From: Candidatus Latescibacterota bacterium
GTDB lineage: Bacteria > Latescibacterota > UBA2968
DNA: 64,000 bases
NCBI GenBank assembly: GCA_965204375.1
Contig: OZ241986.1
Coordinates: 5,760,001-5,824,000, forward strand
Reading direction: 5' to 3'
This document shows, in pieces, positions 33,401-50,938 of this stretch. The notes under the pieces are model-generated. The model had not been told where the DNA came from. It saw nothing but the letters and a program-made list of their open reading frames with translations, and did not search any database. Position numbers and translations under genes: made by a program. Within the stretch, counting starts at the first letter, position 1; each line of letters starts with the position of its first letter.

Positions 33401-35191
33401 TTAGTTGCTGTTCCATCGTATATTACCCGGTTCGGGAGAAGATAGCAATATCATTCCCTGCCTGCGCGCCCAGATGTGTGCGGCTCTGGCGAGCACGGGG
33501 TGATCGGCATTTAGATATGTTAGAGCCATTTCCTCAGTGCCATATTGATGCAGGGCCTGGACGAGCAGGGGTTCTGCTTCAGACATTCCTTTTCGGATGA
33601 AGAAGGCGTGCGCGGCTGCTATAATAAGGGTGCGTTTCTGTTCCAGGGCTTGCAGGAGTTTCTGGCTCGCCCGCGCAGTGGCAATCTCTCCCAGAGCTTC
33701 GGCAGAGCGCCATTGTACTTCTGGCTCGGGATGGTCGATGTGTTCCAGAAAATAGGTTTCTATTTGCAGCGTCGCTTCTCGTTCCCGCCAGTTGGCATCC
33801 AGGCGGTCCAGCACCCGCACCATTCGCCGCGCCCATATCCGTCCTTTTCCGATAATCGAGATGAGAGTATCTGCCACAGATGCATCGCCGATTGATCCCA
33901 GGGCATCAGCCGTTGCCCAGCGCACTTCGGCTGACTGATCGTTCAGCATTTTCAACAGGGGAGCGATGGCACTGCGGTCTCCAATTTCTCCCAAAGCTTC
34001 GGTTGCAATGCGTCGGACCTGTACCGATGTATCGTCTAACTGCTCACTTAGTAAAGCTGTTGCACGGGGGTCTTTCAGTACACCCAGAGTTTGTATTGTT
34101 CCCAGGCGAAATACGCCTTGTTCTGCATTGGACAGGATGGTCAGGAGTGGTTCGACGGCGCGTGTATCGCGCAGTTCGCCCAGAGCCAGTGCAGCGGCTG
34201 AAACAATGCCGGGATCACGATGTTCGAGGGCTTCTACCAGTGGTTCGACGGCTCGCGCATCGCGCAGTTCGCCCAGTGCTCTTATAGCGATATACTGCAC
34301 TTGCATGTTCGGATCTTTTAGTACCTCGAGCAGGGATGGTACCACCCGGGTATCTCCGATCTGTCCCAGGGCCTCGACAGCCTGCATCCGCGCCATCAGG
34401 TCTCCGGTCGCCAGTTGCGCCACAAAAAAGTCTATGGCCGCGCCAGCACCTGTACGCGTTTTCCACTCAGCATCCATTTCCGATAGTACCTGAACTACCT
34501 GGTAGCGCGATTGGTTCGGCAGCTTCAATCCGTCAATCAGGCGATTGATCGCTTCTTCAGCAGGTGCAGAAGTTTGCCACGATGGATCGATGGTGTTGAG
34601 TGCCCCCACCATTACCTGGCGCAGTTCTCTGTCCGCCTGTGGCAGTGCGTCAATCAGGGGGGCGAGAGTCTGTGGGTTTTTTAAATGGGCGAGGGTCAGC
34701 GCGGCCACCCACCGCACATCGCGTGCCCTATCGGTCAGCGCGGTGGTCAGTGCCTGAATGGACCGGTCGCCACCTGCGATACCCAGACTTTGAATTGCTC
34801 CCAGGTACAGTGGCGTTTCTCGCTCTTGCGCGATCCGCAACAAGGTCTCCACGGCTTTTTCGCCTCCGATATTGCCCAGGGCTTCGACCACGCTCAGACC
34901 CACCATGACATTTGGGTCGCGAACAATCGCAATCAGCGAGTCCACTGCCTGCCGATCTCCCAATTTGCCCAGGGCTTCGCTTGCGGCTAATCTCACCTGT
35001 GCATCTCGGTCTTTGAGAGTTTGGATGAGAGCTGGAACCGCACGCCGGTCACCTATTTCTCCTATCTGTATCGCTGCGCGGGCGCGATCCGCAGCATTGG
35101 GATGCTCCAAAATTTGTACCCAATCATCGGCTTTGGACGCGCATCCCAACAAGCCCAGAATAATTAGCCATAAACCGCTTTTAGTGATCAC
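33401..35191 (-). CDS. HEAT-repeat (PBS lyase type) lipoprotein
   Basis: Lipobox LLGC; many repeats of VR..A..ALG.IGD.RAV..L...L.D. Confidence 0.9.
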   Translation of the reverse strand: MITKSGLWLIILGLLGCASKADDWVQILEHPNAADRARAAIQIGEIGDRRAVPALIQTLKDRDAQVRLAASEALGKLGDRQAVDSLIAIVRDPNVMVGLSVVEALGNIGGEKAVETLLRIAQERETPLYLGAIQSLGIAGGDRSIQALTTALTDRARDVRWVAALTLAHLKNPQTLAPLIDALPQADRELRQVMVGALNTIDPSWQTSAPAEEAINRLIDGLKLPNQSRYQVVQVLSEMDAEWKTRTGAGAAIDFFVAQLATGDLMARMQAVEALGQIGDTRVVPSLLEVLKDPNMQVQYIAIRALGELRDARAVEPLVEALEHRDPGIVSAAALALGELRDTRAVEPLLTILSNAEQGVFRLGTIQTLGVLKDPRATALLSEQLDDTSVQVRRIATEALGEIGDRSAIAPLLKMLNDQSAEVRWATADALGSIGDASVADTLISIIGKGRIWARRMVRVLDRLDANWREREATLQIETYFLEHIDHPEPEVQWRSAEALGEIATARASQKLLQALEQKRTLIIAAAHAFFIRKGMSEAEPLLVQALHQYGTEEMALTYLNADHPVLARAAHIWARRQGMILLSSPEPGNIRWNSN

Positions 35192-35292
35192 ATACGTCTC
35201 CTGAGAAAGGCTTTGTGTCTTATGTTGACAGTGACTACCCGCTGCGGTATCATTGGGTATTCACAAACTGTTTGTCGATGGGGAATGCGTTC

Positions 35293-36285
35293 ATGAATCG
35301 GTTCTTAAAGATTTGGTTGGTCTGTTTCGCGGCCGCCTGTGGTTCGTCCGATAAGGGTCTCCAGCCCGAAGATATCCCTGTTTTATCTGAGGGCGATATT
35401 TTGCTCACCGATGCTGCCCAGCGCGCGCTGTTCCGCATCCATCCCGGTACGGGAGACCGCACCGTTGTCACCGACCGCATCGGCGGTGTTCCCCGACAGA
35501 TCGCCCGGGATGCCAATGGCGACCTTCTGATGACCCTTTCTGAAAGCAGCCTGCCCATTGTCCTGCGGTTCGATATCCGAACGGGCGATCTTTTTATTGT
35601 GTCTTCAAGTGGTAGCCCCGTTGATCCCAATGTTCCGATCATCGGTTCAGGTCCCGCGTTTTTGGGCCCGGTCGGTCTGGTGCGAGAATCATCTGGACAA
35701 CTCATAGTTGGCGATCAGCCTTCCGCCACTATCTTTCGCGTTGATCCCGATAGCGGTGACCGCGTGGTCGTTTCTGGTCCCGGTCGAGGTGATGGACCAC
35801 CCTTTACTGGTCGCATCAAGCAGTTTGCCCTGGAGGCCGATGGCAATCTCCTATTGGTGGTCGGCTCAGTTTCTCAGGGGGGCGAGGGGCGTATCTTCCG
35901 CATTGATCCCAATAGTGGCGACCGCACGGTCATCTCTGGTCCAGAAATGGGTGAAGGACCCCGATTGATGGATCCGGAAGGGATTGTTCTGAGCACCCTT
36001 AACACCATTTTTGTCACGGATATCGGTCAGGCCGCTGTTATCCGAGTTGATCCTCTCAGTGGCGACCGAACCATTATTTCAAGTCCTTTTATGGGTGGGG
36101 GTGAATTGCCCGATATTCCCTCTGGTCTCGCTTTTAATACTCTCGATCAACTCCTGGTGGCAGATCGCACCGTTATCTACCGCGTGGATATCAGTACTGG
36201 TGACCGCACGGTTATCTCGGCGCCGATTATTGGTCAGGGCGAACCTTTTCTGGTGGCGGATGATATTTTTGTGATTAAGAATTGA
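35293..36285 (+). CDS. Six-repeat beta-propeller lipoprotein
   Basis: Lipobox-like FAAAC; six repeats of (I/V)xR(V/I)Dxx(S/T)GDR.V(V/I)S. Confidence 0.75.
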   Translation: MNRFLKIWLVCFAAACGSSDKGLQPEDIPVLSEGDILLTDAAQRALFRIHPGTGDRTVVTDRIGGVPRQIARDANGDLLMTLSESSLPIVLRFDIRTGDLFIVSSSGSPVDPNVPIIGSGPAFLGPVGLVRESSGQLIVGDQPSATIFRVDPDSGDRVVVSGPGRGDGPPFTGRIKQFALEADGNLLLVVGSVSQGGEGRIFRIDPNSGDRTVISGPEMGEGPRLMDPEGIVLSTLNTIFVTDIGQAAVIRVDPLSGDRTIISSPFMGGGELPDIPSGLAFNTLDQLLVADRTVIYRVDISTGDRTVISAPIIGQGEPFLVADDIFVIKN

Positions 36286-36286
36286 T

Positions 36287-37837
36287 TTATCTAACCTTTT
36301 TGTTCCGAATCATTTGCAAGCCTTGCTGTGCGTCCGGATGGGTTGGGTCGATTTGAACTGCGCGTTCGAAATACACCTGTGCCGAGTCTGCGCGGCCCTG
36401 ATTGAGCAATAGTATTCCCAACCTCACATGGCCATCGTAGAACCGGGGTGCCAGCTCGATCGAGCGGCGAAATGCCGCTTCTGCCCCTGCCGTATCTCGG
36501 AATCTTTCCAGGGCTATTCCCAGGTCGTAATGCGCTGTGAAAAGCGTGGGTTCCAGGTCGAGGGCTTTTCGAAACTGGGCAATAGCTAAGCCGAGAAATC
36601 CCCGCCGGTCCAGTGCATATCCGATTTGCAAATAGGCTTCTACATCTCTGGGAGCCAGCGCGTCGGCTGCTGCTTGCTCTCGCGCGGCCAGGTCCATCCG
36701 ACCATTTCCCGCATGGCGCGCCGCCCGCTCCAGATGCATCATATAGACTTCGCACTGTCGGCTCAGTGCCACTCCCGAGCGATAAACGCCCAATCCGATG
36801 CCCACAAATAATGCGACCACGCCGATGCGGAAAAGCCATTGTCCGCTCCACCAGGCGCGGCCCTGCAGGAATAAGACCGCCGCTACCGGTGTTGTGACAA
36901 AACCTGTACCGAATCCCTCAGCTACCCAGGCGACAACCGCAGAGGCCAGAATATAGGGCATGGATATTTTTGGCAATGCCATTAGACACAATAAGCCCAG
37001 CGGGATCAGCGAGACCAGCAGGTCTGGTCGCCCGCCAATGCCCACCTGCGCCACGACCGTTACCGCTGTGAATAGCCCTATGCACACCCACATTAATTCG
37101 TGCCGCGACCTGTGCTTGTTTGCGGTTGTTTCCACGGTTGTTGAGCCTACACCAGTCAGTGCCAGAACGCCCAGGGTCAAGATGCTTATCCAGTGCCAGA
37201 GTACAAAAGGCTGTGTGGGTACGGCGCGTGAAATTGGCTCGGAAAACAGGTGTAAGAACATGTGAAAAAGAAATACGCCCCACAGCGCGTGCGCCCAAAA
37301 CCTGCGCCGATAGGGCGTACAGAATGCCAGAAAATAGGGGATAAAGAACTCGAATCCCACTGCAAACCACTCCGCTATCCCTACAGTTGGCACACCTGCA
37401 AAGAAACGGTTGTACGTCGGTATGCTCCACACCCACCAGCCCGCGGCTGCCGCTCCGCCTTCTACCCCATATCCCACGGCTGCCATTCCCACGCAAGTCA
37501 TCCCCACCGTGGCCATCAAATCGCCTTTAAGTGCGGGTATCCGCGCCAGGACCCGTTCGGCCAGCCACCAGCTCACATAGAGGGCAAAAATCCATCCGAT
37601 TACTGCCTGTAAAGACGCTGAAAAAATCTGCACTACCGGCTGCGTGAATACATAAGGCATCACGCCGCCCTGCGATTTTACTGTGATCCAGTGAATCACA
37701 TTTCCCCGCACGACGCCAAACAGAAACGCCGAGATAAAAAAGCTCAGCGCAATGCGGCGGCCCCGATGGGACCAGGCGTGCCACATCAGTACGGCTATTG
37801 CCACAGCAGAGGGCACAAAAAGCAGAAGCGTTTTCAT
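36287..37837 (-). CDS. CruF/DUF422-like multi-TM protein fused to C-terminal TPR
   Basis: HA...G...AL.F; PY.F...W...Y.S..LA; GWWVW...FFAGVP....EW resembles the carotenoid 1,2-hydratase family; about 3-4 TPRs at the C-terminus. Confidence 0.55.
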   Translation of the reverse strand: MKTLLLFVPSAVAIAVLMWHAWSHRGRRIALSFFISAFLFGVVRGNVIHWITVKSQGGVMPYVFTQPVVQIFSASLQAVIGWIFALYVSWWLAERVLARIPALKGDLMATVGMTCVGMAAVGYGVEGGAAAAGWWVWSIPTYNRFFAGVPTVGIAEWFAVGFEFFIPYFLAFCTPYRRRFWAHALWGVFLFHMFLHLFSEPISRAVPTQPFVLWHWISILTLGVLALTGVGSTTVETTANKHRSRHELMWVCIGLFTAVTVVAQVGIGGRPDLLVSLIPLGLLCLMALPKISMPYILASAVVAWVAEGFGTGFVTTPVAAVLFLQGRAWWSGQWLFRIGVVALFVGIGLGVYRSGVALSRQCEVYMMHLERAARHAGNGRMDLAAREQAAADALAPRDVEAYLQIGYALDRRGFLGLAIAQFRKALDLEPTLFTAHYDLGIALERFRDTAGAEAAFRRSIELAPRFYDGHVRLGILLLNQGRADSAQVYFERAVQIDPTHPDAQQGLQMIRNKKVR

Positions 37838-37849
37838 GGCTCCTCTTGT

Positions 37850-38806
37850 TTATATTATGATGTCTGACTGCGTATGGGGTGCGTGGTTTTTGATAAACCA
37901 GAGATAGAGCACCCGACTATAGGAAAAAAATACCATCTGTTTCCGTTGGAAAAAGGGTTCCAGTTCTTTTTGCAATTTCCGCAGGTTGTAAAATGGCACG
38001 CCAGGGAAATAGTGGTGTTCCAGGTGATATGTCGAAAACAGATAGAGAAAATTCCATATCCAATTGGATCGCATGAGGGTTGTCCAGTTGGCGATTTCGT
38101 CTGGATTTATCACATAGTGCTGTCCCAACCGGTTGACCGTAAAAGCAATGGGAAAGATAAAAAATACCGGAAAAAGATGCGCTTTGAAAGCAAACCACGG
38201 GTCCAGCGTCCAGAACCAGGTCAGGATTCCCAGGTGCAGGATGATGCCTACTGTGCGTTCTCGTTTGATCTGGCGGGACAGATGCTCTGGATAGCCTTTG
38301 AAGGTTTCGGCTACTGCCCGAAAATAAATGGGGAATAGCATTGGCGTGCAGTAAAGCAGCTTGAACCACGGCGTATTGATGCGGGGGGACAGGTGCGCCC
38401 GTTTGGGGTCGGCGTGCGTCGATCCCAGGTGATCGTGGTGGTCCAGGTGCCATCGCTTGAACTGTGAAAATGCCAATCCGGAAATCCACCCGTACACAAG
38501 CCCCAGGAGGTCGTTGAGTCGGTGTTTTTTGCGAAAAATGCACCGATGTACGGATTCGTGTAGCAAAACGGAGAAGCTGAAAATTACGAATCCCAATAGT
38601 ACGCTTGCGGGAAACCAGGCCCAGAACGAATCGACGTGGTAAATCCAGACGGGTAGCCCGACCAGCAGTGCCACCTGTCGTATGGCGATCCAAAAGTGTC
38701 GCCAGGGTCGCCGCTGGTGCAGGTCTGTCAGTCGTTCTTCTGGTATTGCCGTCCGCAGTTCCCGGTTTAAGTCTCGTGCATGGTCGTGATACGTCGGTTC
38801 CGCCAT
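37850..38806 (-). CDS. Membrane di-iron fatty acid desaturase/hydroxylase family
   Basis: Three His boxes HESVH, HLDHH and HLEHH..P.VP; ATG 38806 follows GGAGG. Confidence 0.9.
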   Translation of the reverse strand: MAEPTYHDHARDLNRELRTAIPEERLTDLHQRRPWRHFWIAIRQVALLVGLPVWIYHVDSFWAWFPASVLLGFVIFSFSVLLHESVHRCIFRKKHRLNDLLGLVYGWISGLAFSQFKRWHLDHHDHLGSTHADPKRAHLSPRINTPWFKLLYCTPMLFPIYFRAVAETFKGYPEHLSRQIKRERTVGIILHLGILTWFWTLDPWFAFKAHLFPVFFIFPIAFTVNRLGQHYVINPDEIANWTTLMRSNWIWNFLYLFSTYHLEHHYFPGVPFYNLRKLQKELEPFFQRKQMVFFSYSRVLYLWFIKNHAPHTQSDIII

Positions 38807-38820
38807 TGCAGACCTCCGCG

Positions 38821-39702
38821 TTATCCGATTGCAAACACACACACAAACCCCACATGTCCCGCCATCAATAGCAAATACATGTGTTTCCACGAAATGTGAT
38901 TGGATTCAAATGTCAACGCCTCGGGGCGCTTCAACATCAACCAGCCGACATACCCTCCCCAAAGTGCCAGAAAGCCAAGCCACTGCGCACTCGGCGGCAC
39001 CCATTCCCATATTGCGCCAAGGGGAATCAGCGCAAAAGGCAATACCAGAAAAGGCAGTATCATCCACGCTGCTCGTCGAGGTCCCAATAGTACGGGTAGG
39101 GTGTTCATGCCGAAGGCGCGGTCTCCTTCCACATCTGCGAAATCTTTGGTGTTGCTGGCTCCAAACACGTAGAGGCCGAATACCAGGCCCACAAACCAGG
39201 GTGCCGGGTGCCATATAGGTTCCACAGCCGCCCAGCCGCCCACTGGTAGCAAACACCCCCGTCCAAATCCCAGTGCCAGACTTGAAGAGAGTGCGTGCCG
39301 TTTTAGCCGCAAGGGCGGTGCTGAATAGGCCAGTGTGAGCAATGCGCCCACCGCGAAGATGCCCAGCAGTCGGGGATGTACCAGATAGGCGAGACCGAGG
39401 GCGATAATATAGCACGCGGTTCCCAGCAGTGCTGCCCCCCGCATGGATACGCTCCCCGAGGGCAAGGGGCGGGTGGGTTTGTTGATCCGATCAATTTCCA
39501 GATCGCAGCACTGGTTGATGATGTTCGATCCCGCATTCAGGATTGTAACAGCCAGCGTGCCTACCAGGCCTGCTGTTGGGATCTCTCCACCGGTAGCCAT
39601 TGCCGATCCCGCGAGAAATCCCACGGCAGGTGCCAGTAGTGTGAAGGGTCGCGCGAGTACCACAAAGGCGCGGAATCCATTTTGTTCCATAGAATTGCTC
39701 AT
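38821..39702 (-). CDS. UbiA-superfamily prenyltransferase (homogentisate-PT / DGGGP-synthase-like motifs)
   Basis: RPFTL, NQCCDLEIDRINKPTRPLPSG, YS.PP.RLKR, KDFADVEGD...G..TLPV. Confidence 0.88.
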   Translation of the reverse strand: MSNSMEQNGFRAFVVLARPFTLLAPAVGFLAGSAMATGGEIPTAGLVGTLAVTILNAGSNIINQCCDLEIDRINKPTRPLPSGSVSMRGAALLGTACYIIALGLAYLVHPRLLGIFAVGALLTLAYSAPPLRLKRHALSSSLALGFGRGCLLPVGGWAAVEPIWHPAPWFVGLVFGLYVFGASNTKDFADVEGDRAFGMNTLPVLLGPRRAAWMILPFLVLPFALIPLGAIWEWVPPSAQWLGFLALWGGYVGWLMLKRPEALTFESNHISWKHMYLLLMAGHVGFVCVFAIG

Positions 39703-42125
39703 TCGCTTTGGGCCTTTGCTCCCTGCTTATCCACCACGTAAAAACGGGCTGTTTTGTACACTTCAATGTCGCGGTTTAGATCTTTTACGGCGACGACTAC
39801 TTCGTGTTGACCGGGCGCGATATCTCCCAAGTCCAGTTCTACAAAATTCTCGCTTTTCGTTTGTGTGCCGGTCTGCTCGTATCGAATCGTCACTTCTTCT
39901 CTGTTACCGCCCGATAGCATTTGGCCCAGACCCGATAGCGCGCGGATCAGTAGCGGCGTATGGTTGGCGTCTCGCACTGTATAGGCGACTTCGTAGCGCG
40001 TTTGTCCAAACGAGTCGCGTAGCAAATTGTAGATTTCAAAATAAATAAAAAACGATGTTTCCTGATAAAATATCCGACCCGGTGAGGGTTCGACCCGGAA
40101 GCCCGATCGCACAAACTGGCCCGCGGTTCCCGAATCTACCTGAGCTACTGCGCGGGCTACTTGAATACCGCTGACCATCAGTGTATCCCGGCTGTATGAA
40201 ACTACCGGTACAGCCTTTTGATAAACGCCCATCAAATCCGCTTCTGGTCGCCAGACTTGAACGGCGAGCATATAATCGCCTGGCGGTACGTCCATTGGAA
40301 ATTCTTCCACGAGCACGGATCTGCTGCCCCGCGGTGCCATGACCTCAACATCGCCCTGTACGCGATAGACTTTTCCTGAGCGCTCATTGATCAGGGCTAC
40401 CCGCCGCTGCACCCGCGCGGTATCACTGGCACCCTGCACATAGAGGTTGCGGATGGGTACTCCCATCAGCACGCGAACCTCCGTGTCTTTGTCTGTTCCC
40501 TTGAAATCCACTGTATCAAAATGGAAATCCAGGGGTTCGTAATAACTGATGTTATAGACCTCGGGTATGTCCCGGGTGATGCGGGGCATAAAGGTGGCTG
40601 GCGAATATTCCGAGAATAGTCGCGATATCCGCAGTGTCTGGTCGTGCCCAAAACGTTCCAGGCGGTTTCGGTCTTCTGTGGTCAGAACAGGTGGCGGCGC
40701 GTAATCGTAACGCCCGGAGGTAAATTCGTCGGTAAATACCACTTCGATCCCTCCACCGATGCGGGTGTAAAACCACACTTCCCACTTTACGGTCATCCCG
40801 GCAATGCCCGTTGTCACGGGTTTGTACCCGTAAAATCCCAGGGTATCTTCAGCCGCTATGCCCGCGCGGGCTTGCATGGAGCCTTCAAAGGGCATGCGGG
40901 GCAGGTCGTCCAGTTCGGGGTTGTCTTCGTCGATGATGTTTATAAATCGTTCTGTTCGCACTGGATATACAGGTCCCAGAAACGTGTGGTGTACACCATC
41001 GGGACCGTAGAGTCGGCGGGCGAGTTCCGTCTGGATGATTCCGACCGATTGGGGTACGTTGAGGTTTAATGAGCGGGAAGTGGAGCGGTGGTCTGGTTCT
41101 CCGTAGCGAATATAGACCTCACCTCGCCGGTCATAGGGAAATTGCTTTCGTCCGTAGTTTTCCCGCGCATAGAGTACCCGCCGATAGTGTTCGCACCAGC
41201 GCATTAGCCCGCCACTGGCTTTCAAGGGGTCTTTTCTCAGCCAGAATCGCCGCAGGAAATCTCTCCGACGCTCTGGCGGAGTCTGCCGATAGGCCTCCGT
41301 TTCCCTGGGTGTCGCTACAATCGATATATCCCAGTAGAGTCCTCCCTCCTCTTCAGATAGTGTGGAAATATATTCTTCAAAAGCGATGAGCGCGTCTTCG
41401 AAATTGCCCCGCTCCATGAGTATTTGTCCCAGGATCGCATAGCCTCGAGGGTCTTCCAGCCTGCCCAGCAGGCGTTCGGCTTCTGCCTTTTTGCCCGATT
41501 CGGCCAGGCTGCGGATAAACAAATAGGCCGCTTCCTGGTCTTTGGGCTGGCGCTTGAGGTACTGGTCGTAATAATGAATTGCCACTTGATCCAATTTGTC
41601 GTCATTGTAGAGCTGGCCAAGAAGCAGATATCCCGGTGCGTATTCCGGATTGATCTGGATCGCCCGTCCCGCCGCTTTTATGGCATCGCCTGTTTCCGAT
41701 ATTCGATAGAGGCGAGCGAGATGGTAGTACATTTTTGCCTGGGTCGAATCCAGTGTTACGGCTCTTTGCAAATGGGGGCGGGCACCCCGCCAATCGTTTT
41801 TCAGATCCAGGTAGGCCAGTCCTAAACCCAGGTGCGCTTCTACCCACGCCGAATCGGCCTGTACTGCTTTGCGAAATGCGGTGATAGCGTCGTCGGCCTG
41901 TTTAGACTGGAGGTGAAGTTGTCCTATCATGGTCAGCACCCGCGTAGGCTGGGGTTGTTGCTCTGCGATCTTTTCCAGATTTTTGACGGCCTGTTTTACA
42001 CTGTCTTTGTGCGAGGTCTGCAATGCCCGGGCGTAAATTGATTCGGCGTCCTGGGCATGTACCGTTCCGGTTCCGCACAGTCCGATAAAAAGGCTAAGCG
42101 CAAAATAGAAATAACAATTTTTCAT
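39699..42125 (-). CDS. Secreted TPR + GWxTD-domain protein
   Basis: Signal peptide, N-terminal TPRs; F...FW...DP......EHYRRV.YA...YG....DRRGEVYIRYGEPD; E.W.Y; beta-rich C-terminus. Confidence 0.8.
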   Translation of the reverse strand: MKNCYFYFALSLFIGLCGTGTVHAQDAESIYARALQTSHKDSVKQAVKNLEKIAEQQPQPTRVLTMIGQLHLQSKQADDAITAFRKAVQADSAWVEAHLGLGLAYLDLKNDWRGARPHLQRAVTLDSTQAKMYYHLARLYRISETGDAIKAAGRAIQINPEYAPGYLLLGQLYNDDKLDQVAIHYYDQYLKRQPKDQEAAYLFIRSLAESGKKAEAERLLGRLEDPRGYAILGQILMERGNFEDALIAFEEYISTLSEEEGGLYWDISIVATPRETEAYRQTPPERRRDFLRRFWLRKDPLKASGGLMRWCEHYRRVLYARENYGRKQFPYDRRGEVYIRYGEPDHRSTSRSLNLNVPQSVGIIQTELARRLYGPDGVHHTFLGPVYPVRTERFINIIDEDNPELDDLPRMPFEGSMQARAGIAAEDTLGFYGYKPVTTGIAGMTVKWEVWFYTRIGGGIEVVFTDEFTSGRYDYAPPPVLTTEDRNRLERFGHDQTLRISRLFSEYSPATFMPRITRDIPEVYNISYYEPLDFHFDTVDFKGTDKDTEVRVLMGVPIRNLYVQGASDTARVQRRVALINERSGKVYRVQGDVEVMAPRGSRSVLVEEFPMDVPPGDYMLAVQVWRPEADLMGVYQKAVPVVSYSRDTLMVSGIQVARAVAQVDSGTAGQFVRSGFRVEPSPGRIFYQETSFFIYFEIYNLLRDSFGQTRYEVAYTVRDANHTPLLIRALSGLGQMLSGGNREEVTIRYEQTGTQTKSENFVELDLGDIAPGQHEVVVAVKDLNRDIEVYKTARFYVVDKQGAKAQSE

Positions 42126-42295
42126 TGTGTTGTGTTCACAAGAGATGTGATTCTTCGCAAGGTGTATATAAAGTATAATAAAAAACCAAAATGGAATCGC
42201 TGTTTTTTCGCGCTGGTCTCTCGTCAGGTAAGGCGGCAATTGCATTTTTTACATATACGCCTTAGATTGTGGGTTGAACTGTCCAGGAGCTTTCC

Positions 42296-44314
42296 ATGCG
42301 TGTCATTATTTCATTTTTTATCCTGCTAATGCCCCTGTCGGCTCACAGTCGCCCAGTGGTCGCGGTTTTGCCTTTTGAAGAGGCGAATACCGATTGGCTC
42401 CCGGAGGGTATGGCCTGGAGTTTGTCGGATAAGCTCCGCCGCGTGTCGGCACTGCAAATGGTCGATTCCGATCGGCTAAATGCCGCTCTGTCTAAATATC
42501 AGACGCCTGTGCAAGTTGGCCAGTCGGCGGGGGCAACACTGGTCCTGTACGGCGCCTGTCGGTTGGAGAAAGACCAGCTCAAAATCTCCGCCCGCGTTTT
42601 GCGGATTGATACCGATGATATTCTGGAACTGGGAGAGGTGGATGGTCCTCTCGAGTCCCTTTTTGCCCTGCAGGATAGCGTGATTCGCCGCTTCCTGGAC
42701 GGTGTTGATCTCAGTTCCACCGTTATCGAATGGGAGGCGATTCTTCGCAGACCTACCCGATCGGTTCGGGCTTATGCCCACTGGGTGCGCGCCCGGAGTA
42801 TGCTGACTGGCAATGCCGAGGATCCGGATGTTGTGCGCGATCACCTCGACCGCGCCCTTGCCGAGGATGCCGATTATGCCGATGCCCATAGCCACCTGGG
42901 GTTGCTTTTTGTCGCGCAACGCCGGTTCAAAGAGGCGCTCGGTGCCTTGCAGACCGCTGTGCGCCTCAAGCCGGATGATCCACTGACTCGCTACAATCTG
43001 GGTGTGGCTTATGCCAGTTTGGGGCAGCCCGATCGCGCTGCTGTCTCGTTCCGGGATGCGATCCGCCTCAAGCCGGATGATCCCATTACCCACTACAATC
43101 TGGGTATTTTGCACCATCTTCAGGGCAATCACGAGGCTGCTATTGCGCCTTTGCAGACGGCGGTTCGTCTCAAGTCCGATTTTGCGGTCGCCTATCTAAC
43201 TCTGGGCATTGCCCTGGCCAATACGCAATCCTTTTCCCGCGCGGAAGACGCGCTGAAAGAGGCGATTCGCCTGTCTCCCGAAAATGCCGATGCGCACTAC
43301 AATCTGGGCGTTGTCTATATCGAGATGGGGCATTACAATCAGGCGGTCGAAGTTTTAGAACAGGCTATCTCGCACAATCCAGAGCACGCCGATGCCCATT
43401 TTAATCTGGGACGCGCTTATGAGGCATTGGGTCGCTATGATGAAGCGGTCGCTGCCTTCAAACAGGCCGCCCAATTCAATCCCGATTATGCCGATTTGCA
43501 CTTTAATCTGGGTATTGCCCATACCGAGGCCGGGCGTTTTGAGGAGGCTATTCGCACCCTGCACACTGCCCGCCGGATCTATCCGCAAGATCCGCTCATT
43601 TATCACAATATGGGTATTGCCTATCGAAATGCCGCGCGTTTTGAAGAGGCGGAAAATGCTTTTCGAGAAGCGCTGCGTCTCAATCCCCATCTGGCTGATA
43701 TTCACCTGTCTCTGGGCAGTTTGCTACTGGATATGGGACGCTATGAGCAGGGCCTTTCATCCATTCGAGAGGCTGTGCGTCTGACGCCCAAAAATGCCGA
43801 TGCTTACCGCTATCTGGGCGAGGCTCTGGCTTATTTGAAACAGTATCCAGATGCGATTCAGGCTTTCCGAAAAGCCATTGCGCTCAAGGGCGACGATGGA
43901 GACGCCCATCTCGGTCTGGGTATGGTCTATTTGCAGGCTGGGCAAAAAACCGCGGCTGCATCTGCCCTCAAAACAGGTCTTCGACTCAGTCCCAGACACC
44001 CCGATTCTCTGGCTATTGCCCGCGAGATCGCGCGGTTGCAGAAGCAGCCTGAGGAGGTCAGTACTTATCTGAACCGCGCCCGCGCTTTTGAGGATGCCGG
44101 GCTTTTGGACGAAGCGATTGATACCTACCGCAAAGCCGCCAGTCTCAGTCCCGAGAATGCCGATATTCAGCATGCTCTCGGCCTGGCCTGTCTGCGGGCG
44201 AACCGTCCGGAAGATGCGCTACCCGCTTTTCGGAAGGTTCTCAGGCTTCGTCCGGATCATCCCGATGCAAATCTCATTCGGGATTTTATTCGCCGCATGG
44301 TAGAGGGACAATGA
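42296..44314 (+). CDS. Secreted TolB-N/CsgG-like domain + long TPR array
   Basis: Signal peptide; VAVLPF...ISAR...I.T...L..LQD; more than 10 TPRs (AH.NLG..Y). Confidence 0.85.
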   Translation: MRVIISFFILLMPLSAHSRPVVAVLPFEEANTDWLPEGMAWSLSDKLRRVSALQMVDSDRLNAALSKYQTPVQVGQSAGATLVLYGACRLEKDQLKISARVLRIDTDDILELGEVDGPLESLFALQDSVIRRFLDGVDLSSTVIEWEAILRRPTRSVRAYAHWVRARSMLTGNAEDPDVVRDHLDRALAEDADYADAHSHLGLLFVAQRRFKEALGALQTAVRLKPDDPLTRYNLGVAYASLGQPDRAAVSFRDAIRLKPDDPITHYNLGILHHLQGNHEAAIAPLQTAVRLKSDFAVAYLTLGIALANTQSFSRAEDALKEAIRLSPENADAHYNLGVVYIEMGHYNQAVEVLEQAISHNPEHADAHFNLGRAYEALGRYDEAVAAFKQAAQFNPDYADLHFNLGIAHTEAGRFEEAIRTLHTARRIYPQDPLIYHNMGIAYRNAARFEEAENAFREALRLNPHLADIHLSLGSLLLDMGRYEQGLSSIREAVRLTPKNADAYRYLGEALAYLKQYPDAIQAFRKAIALKGDDGDAHLGLGMVYLQAGQKTAAASALKTGLRLSPRHPDSLAIAREIARLQKQPEEVSTYLNRARAFEDAGLLDEAIDTYRKAASLSPENADIQHALGLACLRANRPEDALPAFRKVLRLRPDHPDANLIRDFIRRMVEGQ

Positions 44315-45927
44315 CCATGATTCGCGTCGCGTTGTTCCTGTTCCTGATTTGCGCGCCCCATTTTGTTGCCGCCGATTCTATCCGTTTTACTGAAATGGCG
44401 GAGAAGGCGGGGATCCATTTTGTCCACAGTACCGGAGCCAGGGGCGGATGGCACTATATCGAGACGATGGGTTCCGGCTGTGCGCTTTTCGACGCGGATG
44501 GCGATGGAGATCTGGATCTCTATCTGGTCAATGGTGCCAATTTGCCCGGGCAACCGGTTCAGGGGAGCAATGCGCTGTATCGCAATGATACGGATAAAAC
44601 GATTCGCCTGACTGATATTACTGAAGCTTCGGGTGCGCCCGGGCGAGGCTATGGCATGGGCTGCACCGTGGGCGACGCGGACAATGACGGCGATCTGGAT
44701 CTCTATGTTACCGGCTATCCCGAAAATATTCTGTATGTGAACAATGGCGATGCTACTTTCAAAGACGCTTCTCGGCAGGCGAATGTGACCGCAGGCGGAT
44801 GGAGCGCGGGAGCGGCTTTTTTCGATTTTGAAGCCGATGGGGATCTGGATCTCTATGTGGTGCGCTATCTCGCGTACGATCCCGCCCGAGAGCCAGTGTG
44901 TGAACGCAGTGGTGTGCGGACCTACTGCGCGCCGTACCGGTTTCGGGGTGCTCCCGATCTGCTCTATCAAAACAGCGGAAATGGCGCATTTGAAGATATT
45001 TCTCAGCGGGCCGGTATCGCCGATCCCCGGGGCAAGGGGCTGGGCGTGCTCACGCTGGATTACGACCGGGATGGCGATACCGATCTCTATATCGCCAATG
45101 ATACGACGCCCAATTTTCTCTATCGAAATGATGGTGATCGCTTTACTGAAGTCGGGCACAAAGCGGGTGTGAGCCTAAGTGCTTCGGGCCGTCCACAGGC
45201 CGGTATGGGCGTGGATGCTGGCGATGTGGATGGCGATGGGCGCACCGATCTCATTGTTACCAATTTTTCCTATGAGTCCAACGCCTTTTATCACCAGGCA
45301 GAACAGGGCATATTTACCGATGCCAGTGCTCGTCTGGGGCTGACGGGACCGAGTACGCTTCCTCTGGGCTTTGGCACACATCTCTTCGATGCGGATAGCG
45401 ATGGCGATCTGGATCTTTTTGTCGCCAATGGTCATATTTTTCCCAATGTCTCGGATTTTTCCTCTGCCGAGTCCTACCCCCAGGCCGATCAGTTTTTCCG
45501 CAATACCGCAGGTGTTTTTGAAGACGTTTCCGAATCGGCGGGTTTTACATCGCCCGCTGTCAGCAGGGGTTCGGCGCTGGGCGATATAGATACCGATGGT
45601 GATCTGGACCTGATTGTGCTCGTCGCCGATGCTCGTCCGCATCTCTATCGGAACGATGCTCCACCTGCCTATTCATGGCTTATTGTCCAGATAGAGGGTG
45701 CGGATCGCAGTGCGATTGGTGCGCGCGTCACCCTTACTGCAGGTGGACGTACCCAATCGCGAGAGGTGCGAAGTCAATCCGGGTATCTCTCTTCGGGGGA
45801 TCCGCGCCTCCACTTCGGCCTGGGCAATGCCGAACAGATTGATCGTCTGGATATCTGGTGGCCCTCTGGACGCACCCAAACCCTTCGCAATCTGTCACCG
45901 AATCAGATTCTGGTCATTGAAGAATAG
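44311..45927 (+). CDS. CRTAC1-family FG-GAP/ASPIC-UnbV protein
   Basis: ETMGSG..FD.DGDGDLD.Y..NG; repeated D.D.DG..D and LYRN; AIGARV...Q.REV...SGY.S...LHFGLG....WPSG. Confidence 0.9.
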   Translation: MTMIRVALFLFLICAPHFVAADSIRFTEMAEKAGIHFVHSTGARGGWHYIETMGSGCALFDADGDGDLDLYLVNGANLPGQPVQGSNALYRNDTDKTIRLTDITEASGAPGRGYGMGCTVGDADNDGDLDLYVTGYPENILYVNNGDATFKDASRQANVTAGGWSAGAAFFDFEADGDLDLYVVRYLAYDPAREPVCERSGVRTYCAPYRFRGAPDLLYQNSGNGAFEDISQRAGIADPRGKGLGVLTLDYDRDGDTDLYIANDTTPNFLYRNDGDRFTEVGHKAGVSLSASGRPQAGMGVDAGDVDGDGRTDLIVTNFSYESNAFYHQAEQGIFTDASARLGLTGPSTLPLGFGTHLFDADSDGDLDLFVANGHIFPNVSDFSSAESYPQADQFFRNTAGVFEDVSESAGFTSPAVSRGSALGDIDTDGDLDLIVLVADARPHLYRNDAPPAYSWLIVQIEGADRSAIGARVTLTAGGRTQSREVRSQSGYLSSGDPRLHFGLGNAEQIDRLDIWWPSGRTQTLRNLSPNQILVIEE

Positions 45928-45929
45928 GC

Positions 45930-47897
45930 TTACCATCCGTGTACAAAGTGTCCACTTCCGGGAAACCAGATCGCATCCACGACACTCGACGCTCCCACGC
46001 CCAACAGGTATCCCACCACTATTCCATAGGAAAATGGCATTGATCGCCGGTAGAGCACTACGCCCCCAAATTTGAGGGTCAGTGCCTTGATGAGCCATAC
46101 GACAAAAATAGCGAATCCGTACGTATGACTCGGGAAGGCGAGTCCCACCGGGTGAATCGGCCAGGAAGCGAACCGGGTATTCAAGACTGTCAGCAGTCCC
46201 GCTTCTCCAACTCCGAATAGCCAGACCAGTAGTTTTTGAAAGTCAAAATATGTGGGTTCTGTGCCCTCAATTATGCCTACCTGCCCCAGCATTACGGTCC
46301 AATCGTACATATAGGCCGCGTTCAGGCCGCCCTCCGTATAACACAAATAAAGCTGAGCACCGCAGGCTATGGCATAGGCTCCAAGCAGAGAGATGGGCAG
46401 AGCAAATACGACCAGAAAACGGCGCTTCAGGGCTTGTTGCAATAGCCGAAAAAAATGTGGAATGGCCGGTATCGACAGCATCCGACCCGAATGCGCGGCC
46501 AATCCGCCGCGGTTTAACACCATTATCCCCGTCAGGTCGGAGGGGGAAAAATTGGCTGTTCCCAGAAGCGTCTTTAGTATCGGTCCACCTTTCTGTCCCT
46601 GGGGAGATAGAAATACGAATCCCGTGGCTGCCGCGTATTTGGTCACGCCAAAGTAGATCACGAAAAACAGTGAAAGCTGTAGCAGTGCCACCACGGGTCG
46701 CATGTCCAGAGATACCATCCAGCCTGTGAGAAATGCAAATGCCGCGCCGAATCCCAGCCAGGCCGTGCGATAGGTTACGGGCGTTCCATCGTCTTTGCTC
46801 CGGTCGTCTGATAATGCCTTTTGCAGGGTTTCTTTCAGGTGTCCTCTGGCTACCCAGACCGACCAGATCACGAGAAATACCAGTGCGCCGTGCGCCTCCA
46901 GCATCCGTATTTCTCCCGAGGTTGCCGCCTGCCCCTGCATGCCCACTGTAAATCCCGTTCGATCCATCAGTGCTTGTTTGAAAATATTGAGCACAAAAAA
47001 GGTCCACACGCTCAGCAGTATATTTAGCGGACACAGGTAGGCCAGCCCCATCAAAAGGGGTTGAATTCTCAGATATAAGGTCGGAAAATCGCGCCCGATG
47101 TGTACGGCTTTGGTCAAATAGTGATCGTAGATCCCAATGCGCGGAATTGTAAGAATAAAATATCCGGCAATATTCCAGAAAATTACGCCGGCTGTACACG
47201 CAAAACCCATCCAGAAAACGGGTGTTCGGAACACGATGGGCAATCGGTGTGAGGGTTCTTCCCGGAGCAGTTCCAGGGGCATTGTCGCCAGGGGAAATGT
47301 CAGCCGTTCCCGTTCCACCCATTGTTTGTAAAACAACACACTTGCAAAAAAACCAGCCATTACCAGTGCCACGGTTCCGGCAAACCACCAGAACAGCGGG
47401 GTTAGCCAGTTGCGCCATGGAATAGATTCCTCTGATCCCAGTCCCACGTACAGCTTTTCTACCACCATATCTCCCGGCTCAAAAAACAGCCAGCGGGGCA
47501 TATAGGCTCCCACGACCTCCCAGAATCGGTTTTCCGGTGAAGAAAAAGCGGATGGTGCTGAAATATCTGTAATCAAGTACCCGGCCCAGCCCACTGCCGG
47601 TGCGGTACCCACCATCCAGACCATTCCAAAAATCACCATCACTTCTGTGCGCGACAGGGCAAAGCGAGGCAAAGTTAGCTTTAATACTGTGTTGATCCCT
47701 ACCCACAATACCAGGGGCAGCAACGCGGTGACGGGCACGAAGCTTTTCATCAGATTTCGCCCGAAGTAGGTCGCGTACAAACACATACCCGCAATTGTGA
47801 TCAGCCCCAGTACAAAAGCCCGAATGGTGAGCGATTCAGATGCTGTTGATGCTTTTCTTTCAGGTTTCGGTGCCGAGGCCATGTTCGCAAACCCCAT
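45930..47897 (-). CDS. Large integral membrane protein (DUF6785/DUF6784-like, putative transporter)
   Basis: IPW..W..PL..W, QW...ERL.FPL...P, L.S.W.F, WP.HPVG, W..K...L..GG...Y....PF..G. Confidence 0.7.
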   Translation of the reverse strand: MGFANMASAPKPERKASTASESLTIRAFVLGLITIAGMCLYATYFGRNLMKSFVPVTALLPLVLWVGINTVLKLTLPRFALSRTEVMVIFGMVWMVGTAPAVGWAGYLITDISAPSAFSSPENRFWEVVGAYMPRWLFFEPGDMVVEKLYVGLGSEESIPWRNWLTPLFWWFAGTVALVMAGFFASVLFYKQWVERERLTFPLATMPLELLREEPSHRLPIVFRTPVFWMGFACTAGVIFWNIAGYFILTIPRIGIYDHYLTKAVHIGRDFPTLYLRIQPLLMGLAYLCPLNILLSVWTFFVLNIFKQALMDRTGFTVGMQGQAATSGEIRMLEAHGALVFLVIWSVWVARGHLKETLQKALSDDRSKDDGTPVTYRTAWLGFGAAFAFLTGWMVSLDMRPVVALLQLSLFFVIYFGVTKYAAATGFVFLSPQGQKGGPILKTLLGTANFSPSDLTGIMVLNRGGLAAHSGRMLSIPAIPHFFRLLQQALKRRFLVVFALPISLLGAYAIACGAQLYLCYTEGGLNAAYMYDWTVMLGQVGIIEGTEPTYFDFQKLLVWLFGVGEAGLLTVLNTRFASWPIHPVGLAFPSHTYGFAIFVVWLIKALTLKFGGVVLYRRSMPFSYGIVVGYLLGVGASSVVDAIWFPGSGHFVHGW

Positions 47898-47900
47898 CTC

Positions 47901-50273
47901 TCAGGGTATGGGTTCTGTGACATTCACAATTTGTCCCGCGGACAGGTTTTCTACGACCTGCACTGTTCCGCTGGGCCAGATCACTTTCAGTCGCGTTGCG
48001 CGATCGGCATCTCCCATTCCGAAATGGATGGCATAGGGATCGGTTGATCCGAATCCGACGCTTCCTGGCACCTCTCGGAACAGGGTGCGGTTTCCGACTG
48101 TCAGACGCAATTTTGCGCCTATGCCCGATCGGTTGCTTTGACGCCCATGGAGAGTGATCTGTAACCACCGGTTCTGATTTTCCGACTCGTTGCGGTAAAG
48201 CGCGTTTTCGAATAAGTCTCCGTGGTACCATCCGCCTTGCGGTGCATACACATCGAGGTCGCCATCTGCGTCGTAATCGGCAAATGTGATGCCGTGTCCT
48301 TTGCCCAGGTGTCCCATTCCCGCGCGTTCGGTCAGGTCGGTGAATGTACCATTCCCGTTATTGCGATAAAACCGGTTTGGCTCTAAGCGTCCCAGGTCTG
48401 GATCGCCTGTCCCGAAGTACACGTCCAGGTACCCGTCGTTATCTATGTCTCCCACATTGCCGCCCATTACGCCGTGGGCATAGATGAATCCCGCTTCGTA
48501 GGATACATCTGTGAAGCGCCAGCCTTCGGCCGGACCTTCGTTGCGGTATAGCTTGGGCGTTGGATAGGCCGGGTCGGTGGGCGCGGTATAGCCGATCCGC
48601 TGTCCCTCTAAGCTCTCTTTGAATCCGGCAAGGCAGGTGGTCAGGATATCCAGATCGCCGTCGTTGTCGTAGTCGAAGAAGAACGATACATAGCCCCGAA
48701 GTGTGCCGCTTCCGGCGACGTTGGAAGCCCGTGCGACATCTACAAATGTGCCGTCGCCGCGATTTCGATACAGGGCATTGGGCGTCTCGAAGCCGGTTAC
48801 AAAGAGGTCCAGGTCGCCGTCTAAGTCGTAATCGCCGAAGGCTGCGCCCACTGTGCCCAGAGTAAATCGCAGGCCCGCTTCGTCTGTGGTTTCGACAAAG
48901 TTTCCATTGTTGCGATAGTGCGCGTTTGAGGAGCCGTCTCCGGCAATGCCATTTGCTATAAATAAATCCAGGTCGCCATCGTTATCCGTATCGCCCCACA
49001 GGGAGACAAATCCCGATCCCCCGTCATTTGTGCCCGAAGCTGCGGATACATCGGTGAATTGGCCTCCGTCATTGCGGTAGAGTGCGTTTGGGCCGGGGCC
49101 GGACCACCCGCTGCGGGCGATGTAGAGGTCCAGGTCGCCATCGTTGTCGTAATCGACGAGATTTCCCGAGAATCCCGAATCCACGTCTTTCAGGCCGATC
49201 TGGTTGCTGATATCCACAAATTGGGTTCCGTCGTTGCGGTAAAATGCGAGGTACGTGTCGCATCCCTGCGCCAGCAGGTCCAGGTCGCCGTCGCCGTCGA
49301 TATCTCCCCAGGCACTCGGTCCTGCTCCGTCCAATTTGGCCACGCCCAGGTCGCGGGCCACATCTGTAAAGCGTACGGGCAGGGATGTATCTTTGGATTC
49401 GGGGCGCTGGTCGAAACGATAATAAGACCACAACGACCAGGGATAACCGCCGAGTTTATCATAGGCTTGTTTCAGATTCCACTGGGTGCGGAAAAACCAT
49501 TCGTCTGTTTCCGGCAGGGCGCGCAGCAAATTTAAGAATGTTTCGGCTGATTTTCGATACTGTCCCGCGCGGTAATAGGCTACGCCCAGGCGATCCGGTA
49601 CGCGGAGATCCAGGCGGTCTTTTTGCATTTGCATCGCCACTTTCAAGCGTTCAATTGCCGCTTCGTAATCTCCCATTCTCAAAAGGGCGAGGCCAGCCAG
49701 ATAGCGCGCTTCTGCATCGTTTATGGCGTTATCGGATAATTTATCGGCGTGGTGAAACGCGCGTTCCAGCAAGATGCGGGAGTCGTTCAGGGGCATGATT
49801 TGTCCGCTGCTTCCCATCTTCTGATTTTCAAACCAGATGGTTTCCCCGCCCAGCAAATAGGTGACGTATTCTTTTCGCACGTCCAGCATGAGGGGTTGTT
49901 TTATGAGAGCTGCTTCAAATTGTGCTGCCGCGCGGGCGGGTTCCCGCTGTGATCGGTAAAGCCGCGCGAGCCAGGTTCTCGCCTCGACTGCATCCGGATT
50001 GCGGGCTACTGCTCGCTCAAACGCGGTTATTGCTTCGGGGCGGTTTTGGATTGCGAGCACTTTGCCCAGGTGAAGATAGGCCGCGCTTTGTGTTGAATCA
50101 ATTTGAATACATCGGCGGAACTCGGCTTCGGCAGCTTCGTGCTGCGCCCGCCGCATGCTTTCTATTCCCTGCTGGAGATGCGTGGCATAATCTATCCGCA
50201 GGCCCGGAGAAGGTGTTCTTTGTTCACCGCATCCGATTGACAGGGCAATCAGTAGCAGAAGGATTACAATCAT
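47901..50273 (-). CDS. TPR + FG-GAP/ASPIC-UnbV lipoprotein
   Basis: Lipobox LSIGC; TPRs; repeated D.DNDGDLD.Y and N.LY.N.G; N..GIGA...HFG.G....WPSG. Confidence 0.88.
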   Translation of the reverse strand: MIVILLLLIALSIGCGEQRTPSPGLRIDYATHLQQGIESMRRAQHEAAEAEFRRCIQIDSTQSAAYLHLGKVLAIQNRPEAITAFERAVARNPDAVEARTWLARLYRSQREPARAAAQFEAALIKQPLMLDVRKEYVTYLLGGETIWFENQKMGSSGQIMPLNDSRILLERAFHHADKLSDNAINDAEARYLAGLALLRMGDYEAAIERLKVAMQMQKDRLDLRVPDRLGVAYYRAGQYRKSAETFLNLLRALPETDEWFFRTQWNLKQAYDKLGGYPWSLWSYYRFDQRPESKDTSLPVRFTDVARDLGVAKLDGAGPSAWGDIDGDGDLDLLAQGCDTYLAFYRNDGTQFVDISNQIGLKDVDSGFSGNLVDYDNDGDLDLYIARSGWSGPGPNALYRNDGGQFTDVSAASGTNDGGSGFVSLWGDTDNDGDLDLFIANGIAGDGSSNAHYRNNGNFVETTDEAGLRFTLGTVGAAFGDYDLDGDLDLFVTGFETPNALYRNRGDGTFVDVARASNVAGSGTLRGYVSFFFDYDNDGDLDILTTCLAGFKESLEGQRIGYTAPTDPAYPTPKLYRNEGPAEGWRFTDVSYEAGFIYAHGVMGGNVGDIDNDGYLDVYFGTGDPDLGRLEPNRFYRNNGNGTFTDLTERAGMGHLGKGHGITFADYDADGDLDVYAPQGGWYHGDLFENALYRNESENQNRWLQITLHGRQSNRSGIGAKLRLTVGNRTLFREVPGSVGFGSTDPYAIHFGMGDADRATRLKVIWPSGTVQVVENLSAGQIVNVTEPIP

Positions 50274-50274
50274 G

Positions 50275-50937
50275 TCAGGCCACCCGCCCATCTGCGAGTT
50301 TTATCTGGCGGTCTGCCCGATTTGCCAGATCCAGGTTGTGCGTGGATAGCACGATTGTCAATCCCCCGGTGTGGTTCATATCCCGCAACAATGCCACAAT
50401 CTCATTCCCTCGTTTTGAATCCAGGTTGCCAGTTGGTTCGTCTGCGAGCAAGATCTCGGGGTTGTTTACGAGTGCCCGCGCAATGGCTACCCGTTGCTGT
50501 TCACCCCCCGATAGTTCGCGGGGCAGGTGATCTGATCGGTGCTGCAAATCCACGCGCGCCAGCAAGTCTCTTACCCGGTCGCGTTGGTGCAGTGCGCGGG
50601 AAAAGAGGAGGGGGAGTGCCACATTTTCTTCGACGGTTAATGTGGGTACCAGGCAATAGTCTTGAAATACGAATCCCACGTGTTGCCGACGCATGGTTTC
50701 CAGGTCTTTGCCGCGCAAAGCGCTTACATCCCGATCCAGCAATTTCAAGAGGCCCGATGTGGGCCGGTCCAGACAGCCCAGAAGGTTCAATAGAGTTGTT
50801 TTTCCCGCGCCCGACGCGCCTGTGATGGCTACAAATTCGCCGGGTTCTACGGTCAGATGTACACCGAATAGTGCCGCGATTTCTTCGGCTGAACGGCGGT
50901 ATATCCGCGTGAGGCCCTGTGCAAGAATAGCCGACAT
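50275..50937 (-). CDS. LolD/MacB-type ABC ATP-binding protein
   Basis: GASGAGKTT, GFVFQ, LSGGEQQRVAIARAL, ADEPTGNLD. Confidence 0.93.
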   Translation of the reverse strand: MSAILAQGLTRIYRRSAEEIAALFGVHLTVEPGEFVAITGASGAGKTTLLNLLGCLDRPTSGLLKLLDRDVSALRGKDLETMRRQHVGFVFQDYCLVPTLTVEENVALPLLFSRALHQRDRVRDLLARVDLQHRSDHLPRELSGGEQQRVAIARALVNNPEILLADEPTGNLDSKRGNEIVALLRDMNHTGGLTIVLSTHNLDLANRADRQIKLADGRVA

Positions 50938-50938
50938 T

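Follow-up and report, generated by a model that had tools for sequence, protein, structure and literature searches.

The stretch of DNA analyzed here, 64,000 nucleotides from a Candidatus Latescibacterota bacterium (positions 5,760,001 to 5,824,000 of contig OZ241986.1, assembly GCA_965204375.1; hereafter the window), encodes at positions 36287-42125 four co-directional open reading frames (ORFs) on the minus strand that may constitute an operon for a prenylated membrane lipid. The first is P0004 (39699..42125), a secreted protein with tetratricopeptide repeats (TPR) and a GWxTD domain; its longest ORF is 39699-42245, while a start at the ATG at 42125 gives 808 amino acids and the signal-peptide-like N-terminus MKNCYFYFALSLFIGLCGTGTVHA. 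P0003 follows (38821..39702, 293 amino acids) and is a UbiA-superfamily prenyltransferase from the branch that resembles DGGGPS, ChlG and HPT. P0002 (37850..38806), a di-iron membrane enzyme, belongs to the fatty-acid desaturase family and is 318 amino acids long from an ATG at 38806 preceded by GGAGG; its longest ORF, with a GTG start, is 37850-38890. The last gene, P0001 (36287-37837 by the ORF map), combines a membrane domain of about 12 helices from an unannotated family (residues 1-365; 36743..37837) with a C-terminal domain identified by matches to TPR families (residues 366-516; 36287..36742). An initial annotation, made from the DNA alone, had described these genes as tightly coupled. 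The ORF map agrees, with correct coordinates, and direct reading of the junctions shows the overlap and gaps it had listed: the P0004 stop and P0003 start share the ATGA at 39702-39699, a 14-nt spacer containing GGAGG separates P0003 from P0002, and a 12-nt spacer containing GAGGAG separates P0002 from P0001.

Downstream, a single base separates the operon from the end of a convergent gene (35215-36285). Upstream, judging from the sequence and the ORF map, the 170-bp divergent intergenic region at 42126..42295, between the operon and a plus-strand TPR gene (42296-44314), is the likely promoter region. No convincing sigma-70 consensus was found on the minus strand of this region, and scans for promoters and terminators gave counts at or below shuffled expectation. 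In four metatranscriptome libraries, contigs span the operon and bridge all three of its junctions, a weak hint of co-transcription. These contigs, one of them 14 kb long, also include flanking genes on both strands, and so cannot show a transcript; DNA carry-over is possible. The runs that contain this stretch, RNA libraries and others, carry the labels coral, sponge and marine metagenome.

The UbiA superfamily is defined by two Asp-rich motifs. P0003 belongs to it, with 154.9 bits against PF01040 (cut-off 34.2), and the two motifs that the initial annotation had pointed out, NQCCDLEIDRINKP and KDFADVEGD, are present in its translation and align with the same motifs of DGGGPS. Assignment to a curated subfamily fails: P0003 lies below the NCBIfam cut-offs of every DGGGPS, ChlG, BchG and HPT model. 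Its best scores are to ChlG (NF005742; 118.3 bits, cut-off 313) and PRK12884 (111, cut-off 269), followed by BchG (104, cut-off 212), HPT (NF009525; 103.7, cut-off 226) and the DGGGPS equivalogs NF009521 and NF009522 (97.1 and 83.1, cut-offs 296 and 353). Models of the quinone enzymes UbiA, MenA and MqnP return just 34-46 bits, with cut-offs of 225-420, and quinone and haem models taken together return 34-51 bits. Among solved chains, DGGGPS of Methanocaldococcus jannaschii comes closest at 73 bits, followed by chlorophyll a synthase at 70, with ApUbiA well behind at 40 bits. Scores and solved chains alike bear out the original view of an enzyme of the DGGGPS/ChlG/HPT kind. The genome, a single 6.34-Mb contig, holds four further UbiA genes: a heme O synthase (262 bits, cut-off 210), a MqnP/UbiA_other gene that adjoins UbiX (292 bits, cut-off 180.8), a decaprenyl-phosphate phosphoribosyltransferase (DPPR synthase; 325 bits, cut-off 234) and a DGGGPS-like gene at C1:1231191-1232024 (194.3 bits, cut-off 296). 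Given its low scores to quinone enzymes and the four UbiA genes found elsewhere in the genome, P0003 is, on sequence comparison, a fifth, accessory paralog rather than a housekeeping quinone enzyme. Membership in a housekeeping quinone clade, which the initial annotation had named as fatal to its proposal, is contradicted both by these scores and by the separate MqnP-like paralog.

P0002 matches PF00487 at 107 bits (cut-off 29.7), and its translation contains three His boxes, HESVH, HLDHH and HLEHH, which agrees with its earlier description as a three-His-box membrane enzyme. It reaches no named NCBIfam subfamily, scoring 54 bits to GntB (cut-off 380), 30 to DesA (cut-off 500) and 23 to CrtR (cut-off 475). 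We detected 3134 homologs, many of them 50-60% identical, and the small number that carry source names come from records of Acidobacteriota, Bacteroidota, Planctomycetota and Acidimicrobiia.

P0001 had been called a CruF-like hydratase. Hidden Markov model (HMM) searches matched PF01040, PF00487 and GWxTD to the proteins expected to carry them; the whole of P0001, however, has no PF04240 match at E<=0.01, its residues 1-374 have no match to any Pfam family at E<=10, and a genome-wide search found PF04240 nowhere in this genome. The family to which the membrane domain belongs was delineated with residues 1-365 as query in a full HMMER scan of 1.84 billion representative sequences: at E<=1e-3 it comprises 196 cluster representatives, of which 132 pass 1e-10 and 28 pass 1e-30. 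Among 59 members scanned for domain architecture, TPR_19 (PF14559), the commonest TPR model, occurs in 28 and a sulfatase domain in four, and some members of the family consist of the membrane domain alone, at about 340 amino acids. Residues W82, Y87 and E126 are invariant in the family, and H20, G81, W90, W135, W137, W157 and P279 are nearly so. Compared by hhalign with an alignment of PF04240 members, the family profile gave probabilities of 87.6% and 85.7% (E 3.5e-6 and 5.5e-6), below 90% and with only eight sequences, all from Latescibacterota genomes, on the PF04240 side. The alignment runs over 137 columns (query 64-213, P0001 residues ~62-214) and pairs conserved positions of the two families, W82 with W185, E126 with D225, W135xW137 with W238xW240, P150 with P250, and W157 with W257. 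Control comparisons of either profile with a UbiA alignment gave probabilities of 0.1-0.2%. P0001 thus appears, by sequence profile, to be remotely related to the CruF family, from which it differs by additional helices and a TPR tail, and it falls below the Pfam threshold: the proposed kinship survives as remote homology only, while membership in PF04240 does not.

An AlphaFold2 model of the membrane domain, with about 12 helices, is of high confidence (pLDDT 94.1, pTM 0.93). Foldseek found nothing for it in the PDB at E<=0.001, a result with no bearing on whether the fold is novel; an ESM Atlas look-up returned no usable match, and sequence searches of the PDB with the family profile and with the PF04240 set each found no chain at E<=10. 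In VIA-align, the best match of the N-terminal half is an Insig homolog (4xu4_A; Z 6.3, root-mean-square deviation 3.7 over 140 residues). Lysine and arginine counts in the loops between modeled helices place the conserved residues and the TPR domain on the periplasmic side, and from this count and the family members with a sulfatase domain where P0001 has its TPRs we infer that the TPR domain is probably periplasmic. One explanation that draws on these features is that P0001 is no enzyme at all, but a protein for lipid binding, sensing or hand-over that presents the product of the UbiA enzyme and the desaturase to periplasmic partners through its TPR domain, with the GWxTD-TPR protein as one such partner. 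The Insig homolog binds lipid, the TPR and sulfatase fusions suggest an extracytoplasmic module, and P0004 has both a signal peptide and TPRs. A Z score of 6.3, though, is within noise for helical bundles, and the invariant acidic residue and Trp cluster of P0001 align with those of PF04240, a family named for carotenoid biosynthesis. We therefore regard a purely non-enzymatic P0001 as unlikely.

The genome's isoprenoid supply constrains what the substrate might be. Its two SQS_PSY genes are HpnC (328 bits, cut-off 250) and HpnD (314 bits, cut-off 279), and they adjoin HpnE (399 bits, cut-off 283), forming an HpnC-HpnD-HpnE trio for squalene synthesis at G000:C1:3898.3-3902.3 kb (L144, L146). 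No phytoene synthase or crtI-family gene scores above cut-off anywhere in the genome, the best crtI-family score being 74 against 238, and the absence of crtB and crtI noted before for the window thus extends to the whole genome. Because HpnCDE is present and a phytoene pathway is not, a carotenoid substrate for the operon is unlikely. A genome search of the kind proposed at the outset, for either crt genes or a synthase of geranylgeranylglyceryl phosphate (GGGP), did find the latter: a gene at G000:C1:690184-690930 scores 271 bits, with a cut-off of 247. GGGP synthase is encoded in 21 of the 21 genomes of the genus and the DGGGPS-like UbiA paralog in 20 of the 21; both are core genes, unlinked to each other. 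Together they represent an archaeal-type pair of ether-lipid genes in a Latescibacterota lineage.

These genes raise the possibility that the operon serves a second, modified branch of archaeal-type ether lipids, in which P0003 prenylates GGGP, either replacing the core DGGGPS-like paralog or following it, and the chains are then oxidized and hydrated to hydroxylated isoprenoid glycerol ethers. The closest solved relative of P0003 is the M. jannaschii DGGGPS, with motif regions that are nearly identical; the GGGP synthase, as described above, clears its cut-off and is universal in the genus; and PF04240 matches were found in a control genome of Methanosarcina acetivorans, which is not carotenogenic. 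Bacteria of the Fibrobacteres-Chlorobi-Bacteroidetes (FCB) group with both GGGP synthase and DGGGPS are reported (PMC7852524). Against such a branch, P0003 reaches only 97 of the 296 bits set as the DGGGPS cut-off, GGGP already has a partner in the paralog that scores 194 bits and is core to the genus, and the GGGP synthase gene is unlinked to the operon and equally present in genomes that lack it. On balance we think it improbable that the operon makes ether lipids of this type.

Taxonomic distribution ties two of the genes together. Among 168 genomes of the phylum, an ortholog of the UbiA enzyme occurs in 16 and the P0001 family, whether searched by single sequence or by profile, in the same 16; the desaturase occurs in 15. 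The 16 are the window's genome, 14 of its 20 congeners, and one genome from another family of the class, G079, which has the UbiA enzyme and P0001 only. Within the genus, one and the same set of 14 out of the 20 congeners carries all three genes, and gene order in the operon is identical among congeners, down to G001 at 80-86% identity. The contig that carries the UbiA gene of G079 is the same as metagenome locus L035 (99.9-100% identity), where the order is a GWxTD-TPR gene (38% identical to P0004), a PhyH-like dioxygenase, the UbiA gene (56%) and a variant radical SAM gene (199 bits to NF045502). The wider UbiA clade was sampled in 80 metagenome loci at 42-56% identity, of which only 34 extend for at least 2.5 kb downstream of the gene. 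The variant radical SAM gene is found in five of the 80, directly downstream of UbiA in three; none scores above cut-off in the window's own genome. L048, a distant metagenome contig, has three overlapping genes encoding a UbiA enzyme (46% identical to P0003), a variant radical SAM protein (216 bits to NF045502) and a P0001-family protein (329 bits to the family profile, 26% identical to P0001). What recurs is a UbiA enzyme followed by an oxidizing enzyme and then by a CruF-like protein, and the middle gene appears to be swapped between lineages. The prediction that the genes would co-occur in other genomes accordingly holds for the UbiA enzyme with the CruF-like protein, and fails for the desaturase, which joins them in this genus only.

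The wider clade itself (loci L036-L114, 42-49% identical) presents an uncharacterised conserved neighbourhood of a different kind. A radical SAM gene of the Rv2578c type lies just downstream of UbiA in 17 loci, a 445-amino acid protein containing DUF92 is encoded upstream in 14, and a polyprenyl synthase occurs in nine; further neighbors include NAD epimerases (18 loci), LptD (11 loci) and GT2 genes. We take DUF92 to be the phytyl-phosphate kinase VTE6; co-occurrence of the two was sought in the literature and could not be confirmed.

P0004 scores 46.2 bits against the GWxTD model TIGR04514 (cut-off 28) and also matches TPR models. Its signal-peptide-like N-terminus is followed by a TPR region, the GWxTD alpha/beta domain and two Ig-like beta-sandwiches. 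An AlphaFold2 model of residues 296-848 has a pLDDT of 84.5, and the Ig-like matches of the C-terminal half reach Z scores of 9-11. Identification as a transglutaminase was considered and rejected: transglutaminases occupy the top rows of the Foldseek results (E 3e-9), but at TM scores of just 0.14-0.18, the aligned region follows the two Ig-like domains, and a 23-row alignment contains no invariant Cys. Genome-wide, 31 GWxTD matches exceed the cut-off, P0004 included, and the nearest of its paralogs is 37% identical to it, as against 38% for the neighbor of UbiA in G079. In G017 and G002, GWxTD genes lie near FG-GAP genes in the absence of the UbiA-desaturase-P0001 trio. P0004 may therefore be one of many secreted envelope proteins of this lineage; the ATGA overlap and the adjacency in G079 hint weakly at a possible link to the other three genes. 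The suggestion that the operon would supply a functional context for the GWxTD domain gains little from a protein with an Ig-like C-terminal half among 31 secreted paralogs, and the term GWxTD was not found in the literature searched. Outside the window, at G000:C1:5832731-5839515, two further GWxTD-TPR paralogs adjoin a PhyH-like double-domain dioxygenase that is 65% identical to the copy lying in L035 between the GWxTD and UbiA genes; at least six such dioxygenase copies, at 60-65% identity, are present in the genome.

The operon lies within a variable segment. The close relative G002, whose GGGP synthase is 98% identical, matches the window at 92% over 26136-33468 in DNA searches and resumes at 63423-63599, and in its own contig these two flanks lie 14 bp apart. 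Because the flanks match and what lies between them is absent, 33469..63422 constitutes an accessory segment, or island, of about 30 kb; a clean insertion or deletion of the four genes alone is rejected, since G002 lacks the whole segment. The island also holds HEAT, NHL, TPR and FG-GAP/ASPIC genes, a DUF6785/DUF6784 gene, a pair encoding an ABC ATPase and a MacB-type permease, a multihaem-HEAT-TPR protein and TonB-receptor-like genes. Just to its right, at 63604-63999, is a fragment of a Mutator-family transposase (PF00872, 115 bits).

Such a setting allows that the genes are neighbors with no common pathway, an ordinary acyl-lipid desaturase having been brought together, on a mosaic island, with an unrelated membrane gene on either side of it, and the GWxTD gene being simply one of many. 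The island is indeed mosaic and adjoins a transposase; the desaturase family is widespread with no known link to UbiA, and its link here is genus-specific; and the 31 GWxTD paralogs, together with the GWxTD genes found apart from the trio in G017 and G002, fit the same picture. Chance adjacency accounts poorly, however, for the tight packing, with Shine-Dalgarno sequences in the 12-14-nt spacers and the ATGA overlap, for the identical sets of genomes that hold the UbiA enzyme and P0001 among the 168, and for the recurrence of a UbiA-X-P0001 order in L048 at identities of 46% and 26%. We give this explanation a low probability.

Several other features of the window and island were recorded. G018 has two copies of the DNA of 63604-63999, at 86% identity. 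At about 31176-31334 lies a short intergenic repeat with dozens of scattered copies, 75-100% identical, in G008, G016, G018 and G002, resembling a repetitive extragenic palindromic (REP) or miniature inverted-repeat transposable element (MITE) type of element. GC skew is very high across the 20 kb of 6001-26000 (+0.25 to +0.40), whereas elsewhere in the window it is close to 0. A TonB-receptor-like gene at 58101-61449 seems to be split into a 257-amino acid piece (CarboxypepD_reg, Plug) followed by an 819-amino acid ORF with no Pfam match, and the 612-amino acid protein encoded at 52585-54423 has HEAT and TPR repeats as well as the motifs of a multihaem cytochrome c.

The reading we favor, tentatively and at somewhat less than an even chance of being right, is that the UbiA enzyme, the desaturase and P0001 make up an accessory membrane module for the synthesis or tailoring of a prenylated lipid that is neither quinone nor haem nor carotenoid. 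In the proposed order of steps, P0003 would transfer a prenyl group, likely C20 by its likeness to DGGGPS and ChlG, onto an acceptor at the cytoplasmic face of the membrane. The di-iron enzyme P0002 would then use O2 to desaturate or hydroxylate the product, and the CruF-superfamily domain of P0001 would target a double bond of the isoprenoid, most likely hydrating it in the manner of CruF, with its conserved residues predicted to face the periplasm and its TPR domain on the same side. The variant radical SAM protein encoded between UbiA and the CruF-like gene could be the O2-independent counterpart of the desaturase. By position the GWxTD-TPR gene would be co-transcribed, but its product may be just one of the many secreted GWxTD proteins. 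That the module is accessory is suggested by its place on the ~30-kb island and its presence in 14 of 20 congeneric genomes.

Several observations weigh against this proposal. The co-occurrence of UbiA and P0001 comes from two lineages only; in G079 the two genes are on different contigs, and the neighbors of the P0001 homolog are unrelated. In the sample of the wider clade, a P0001-family gene is present at one locus of 80, L048, and missing from the other 79, and the desaturase is present at none. The link of desaturase to UbiA is confined to one genus, and P0002, with thousands of homologs at 50-60% identity in other phyla, may have an independent job. The HMM of PF04240 itself does not match P0001, so that its kinship with CruF depends on the profile comparison and its eight sequences, and the charge count is the only ground for its predicted topology.

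A more ambitious version would make the module the source of a new class of oxygenated isoprenoid lipids in FCB bacteria, with the radical SAM enzyme serving in anaerobes and the di-iron enzyme in this lineage, which is associated with corals and sponges, GGGP from the genome's own synthase as substrate, and a hydroxylated, archaeol-like ether lipid at the periplasmic face handled by TPR and GWxTD envelope proteins; this we consider a long shot. Should the module work as proposed, it would extend a logic of prenylation, oxidation and hydration to a lipid outside the carotenoids, in a phylum of uncultured symbionts. To our knowledge, that logic is known only from the C50 carotenoids made by haloarchaea and by actinobacteria. 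The module would further assign an initial function to a membrane family of 196 sequence clusters that is so far unannotated, and would show clearly, inside a single operon, the replacement of a radical SAM enzyme by an O2-dependent one. The question bears on which coral and sponge bacteria make unusual isoprenoid lipids. A preprint on sponge ether lipids names Latescibacterota for ElbD/Ger homologs only, and the passages searched mention neither UbiA nor GGGP. The module, for now, is a well-framed hypothesis and not a discovery.

Comparison with known systems shows partial resemblances to four. With archaeal DGGGPS (PDB 6m31; 73 bits, E 1.8e-19), P0003 shares an almost unchanged first Asp-rich region and the motif KDFxDxEGD, but its score of 97 against 296 bits, the better paralog at 194 and neighbors that are not lipid-backbone genes all set it apart. 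ChlG is its top NCBIfam score (118), with BchG and HPT both at 104 and the solved chlorophyll a synthase at 70; it is nonetheless far below the cut-offs of 313, 212 and 226 for these three. O2-dependent and radical SAM enzymes are known to serve the same step in the pairs AcsF/BchE and HemF/HemN. The di-iron enzyme here and the variant radical SAM protein in L048 and L035 likewise occupy one slot after UbiA, with the differences that equivalence of their reactions is our supposition and that identity between the UbiA enzymes of these contexts is just 46-56%. Of all known systems, the bacterioruberin (C50) system of haloarchaea is the nearest parallel. This genome, with HpnC, HpnD and HpnE and no phytoene synthase or CrtI above cut-off, would have no lycopene to offer such a system; the haloarchaeal desaturase is a flavoprotein rather than a membrane di-iron enzyme (PF00487); P0001, in contrast to CruF, lies below Pfam detection, is longer by about five helices and ends in a TPR tail; and P0003, among the enzymes compared, scores nearest to DGGGPS and ChlG. 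Yet in Haloarcula japonica (PMC9258230), CrtD, LyeJ (a UbiA-family enzyme) and CruF are adjacent, and the operon described here likewise sets a UbiA-family enzyme, a desaturase and a CruF-family-like protein side by side.

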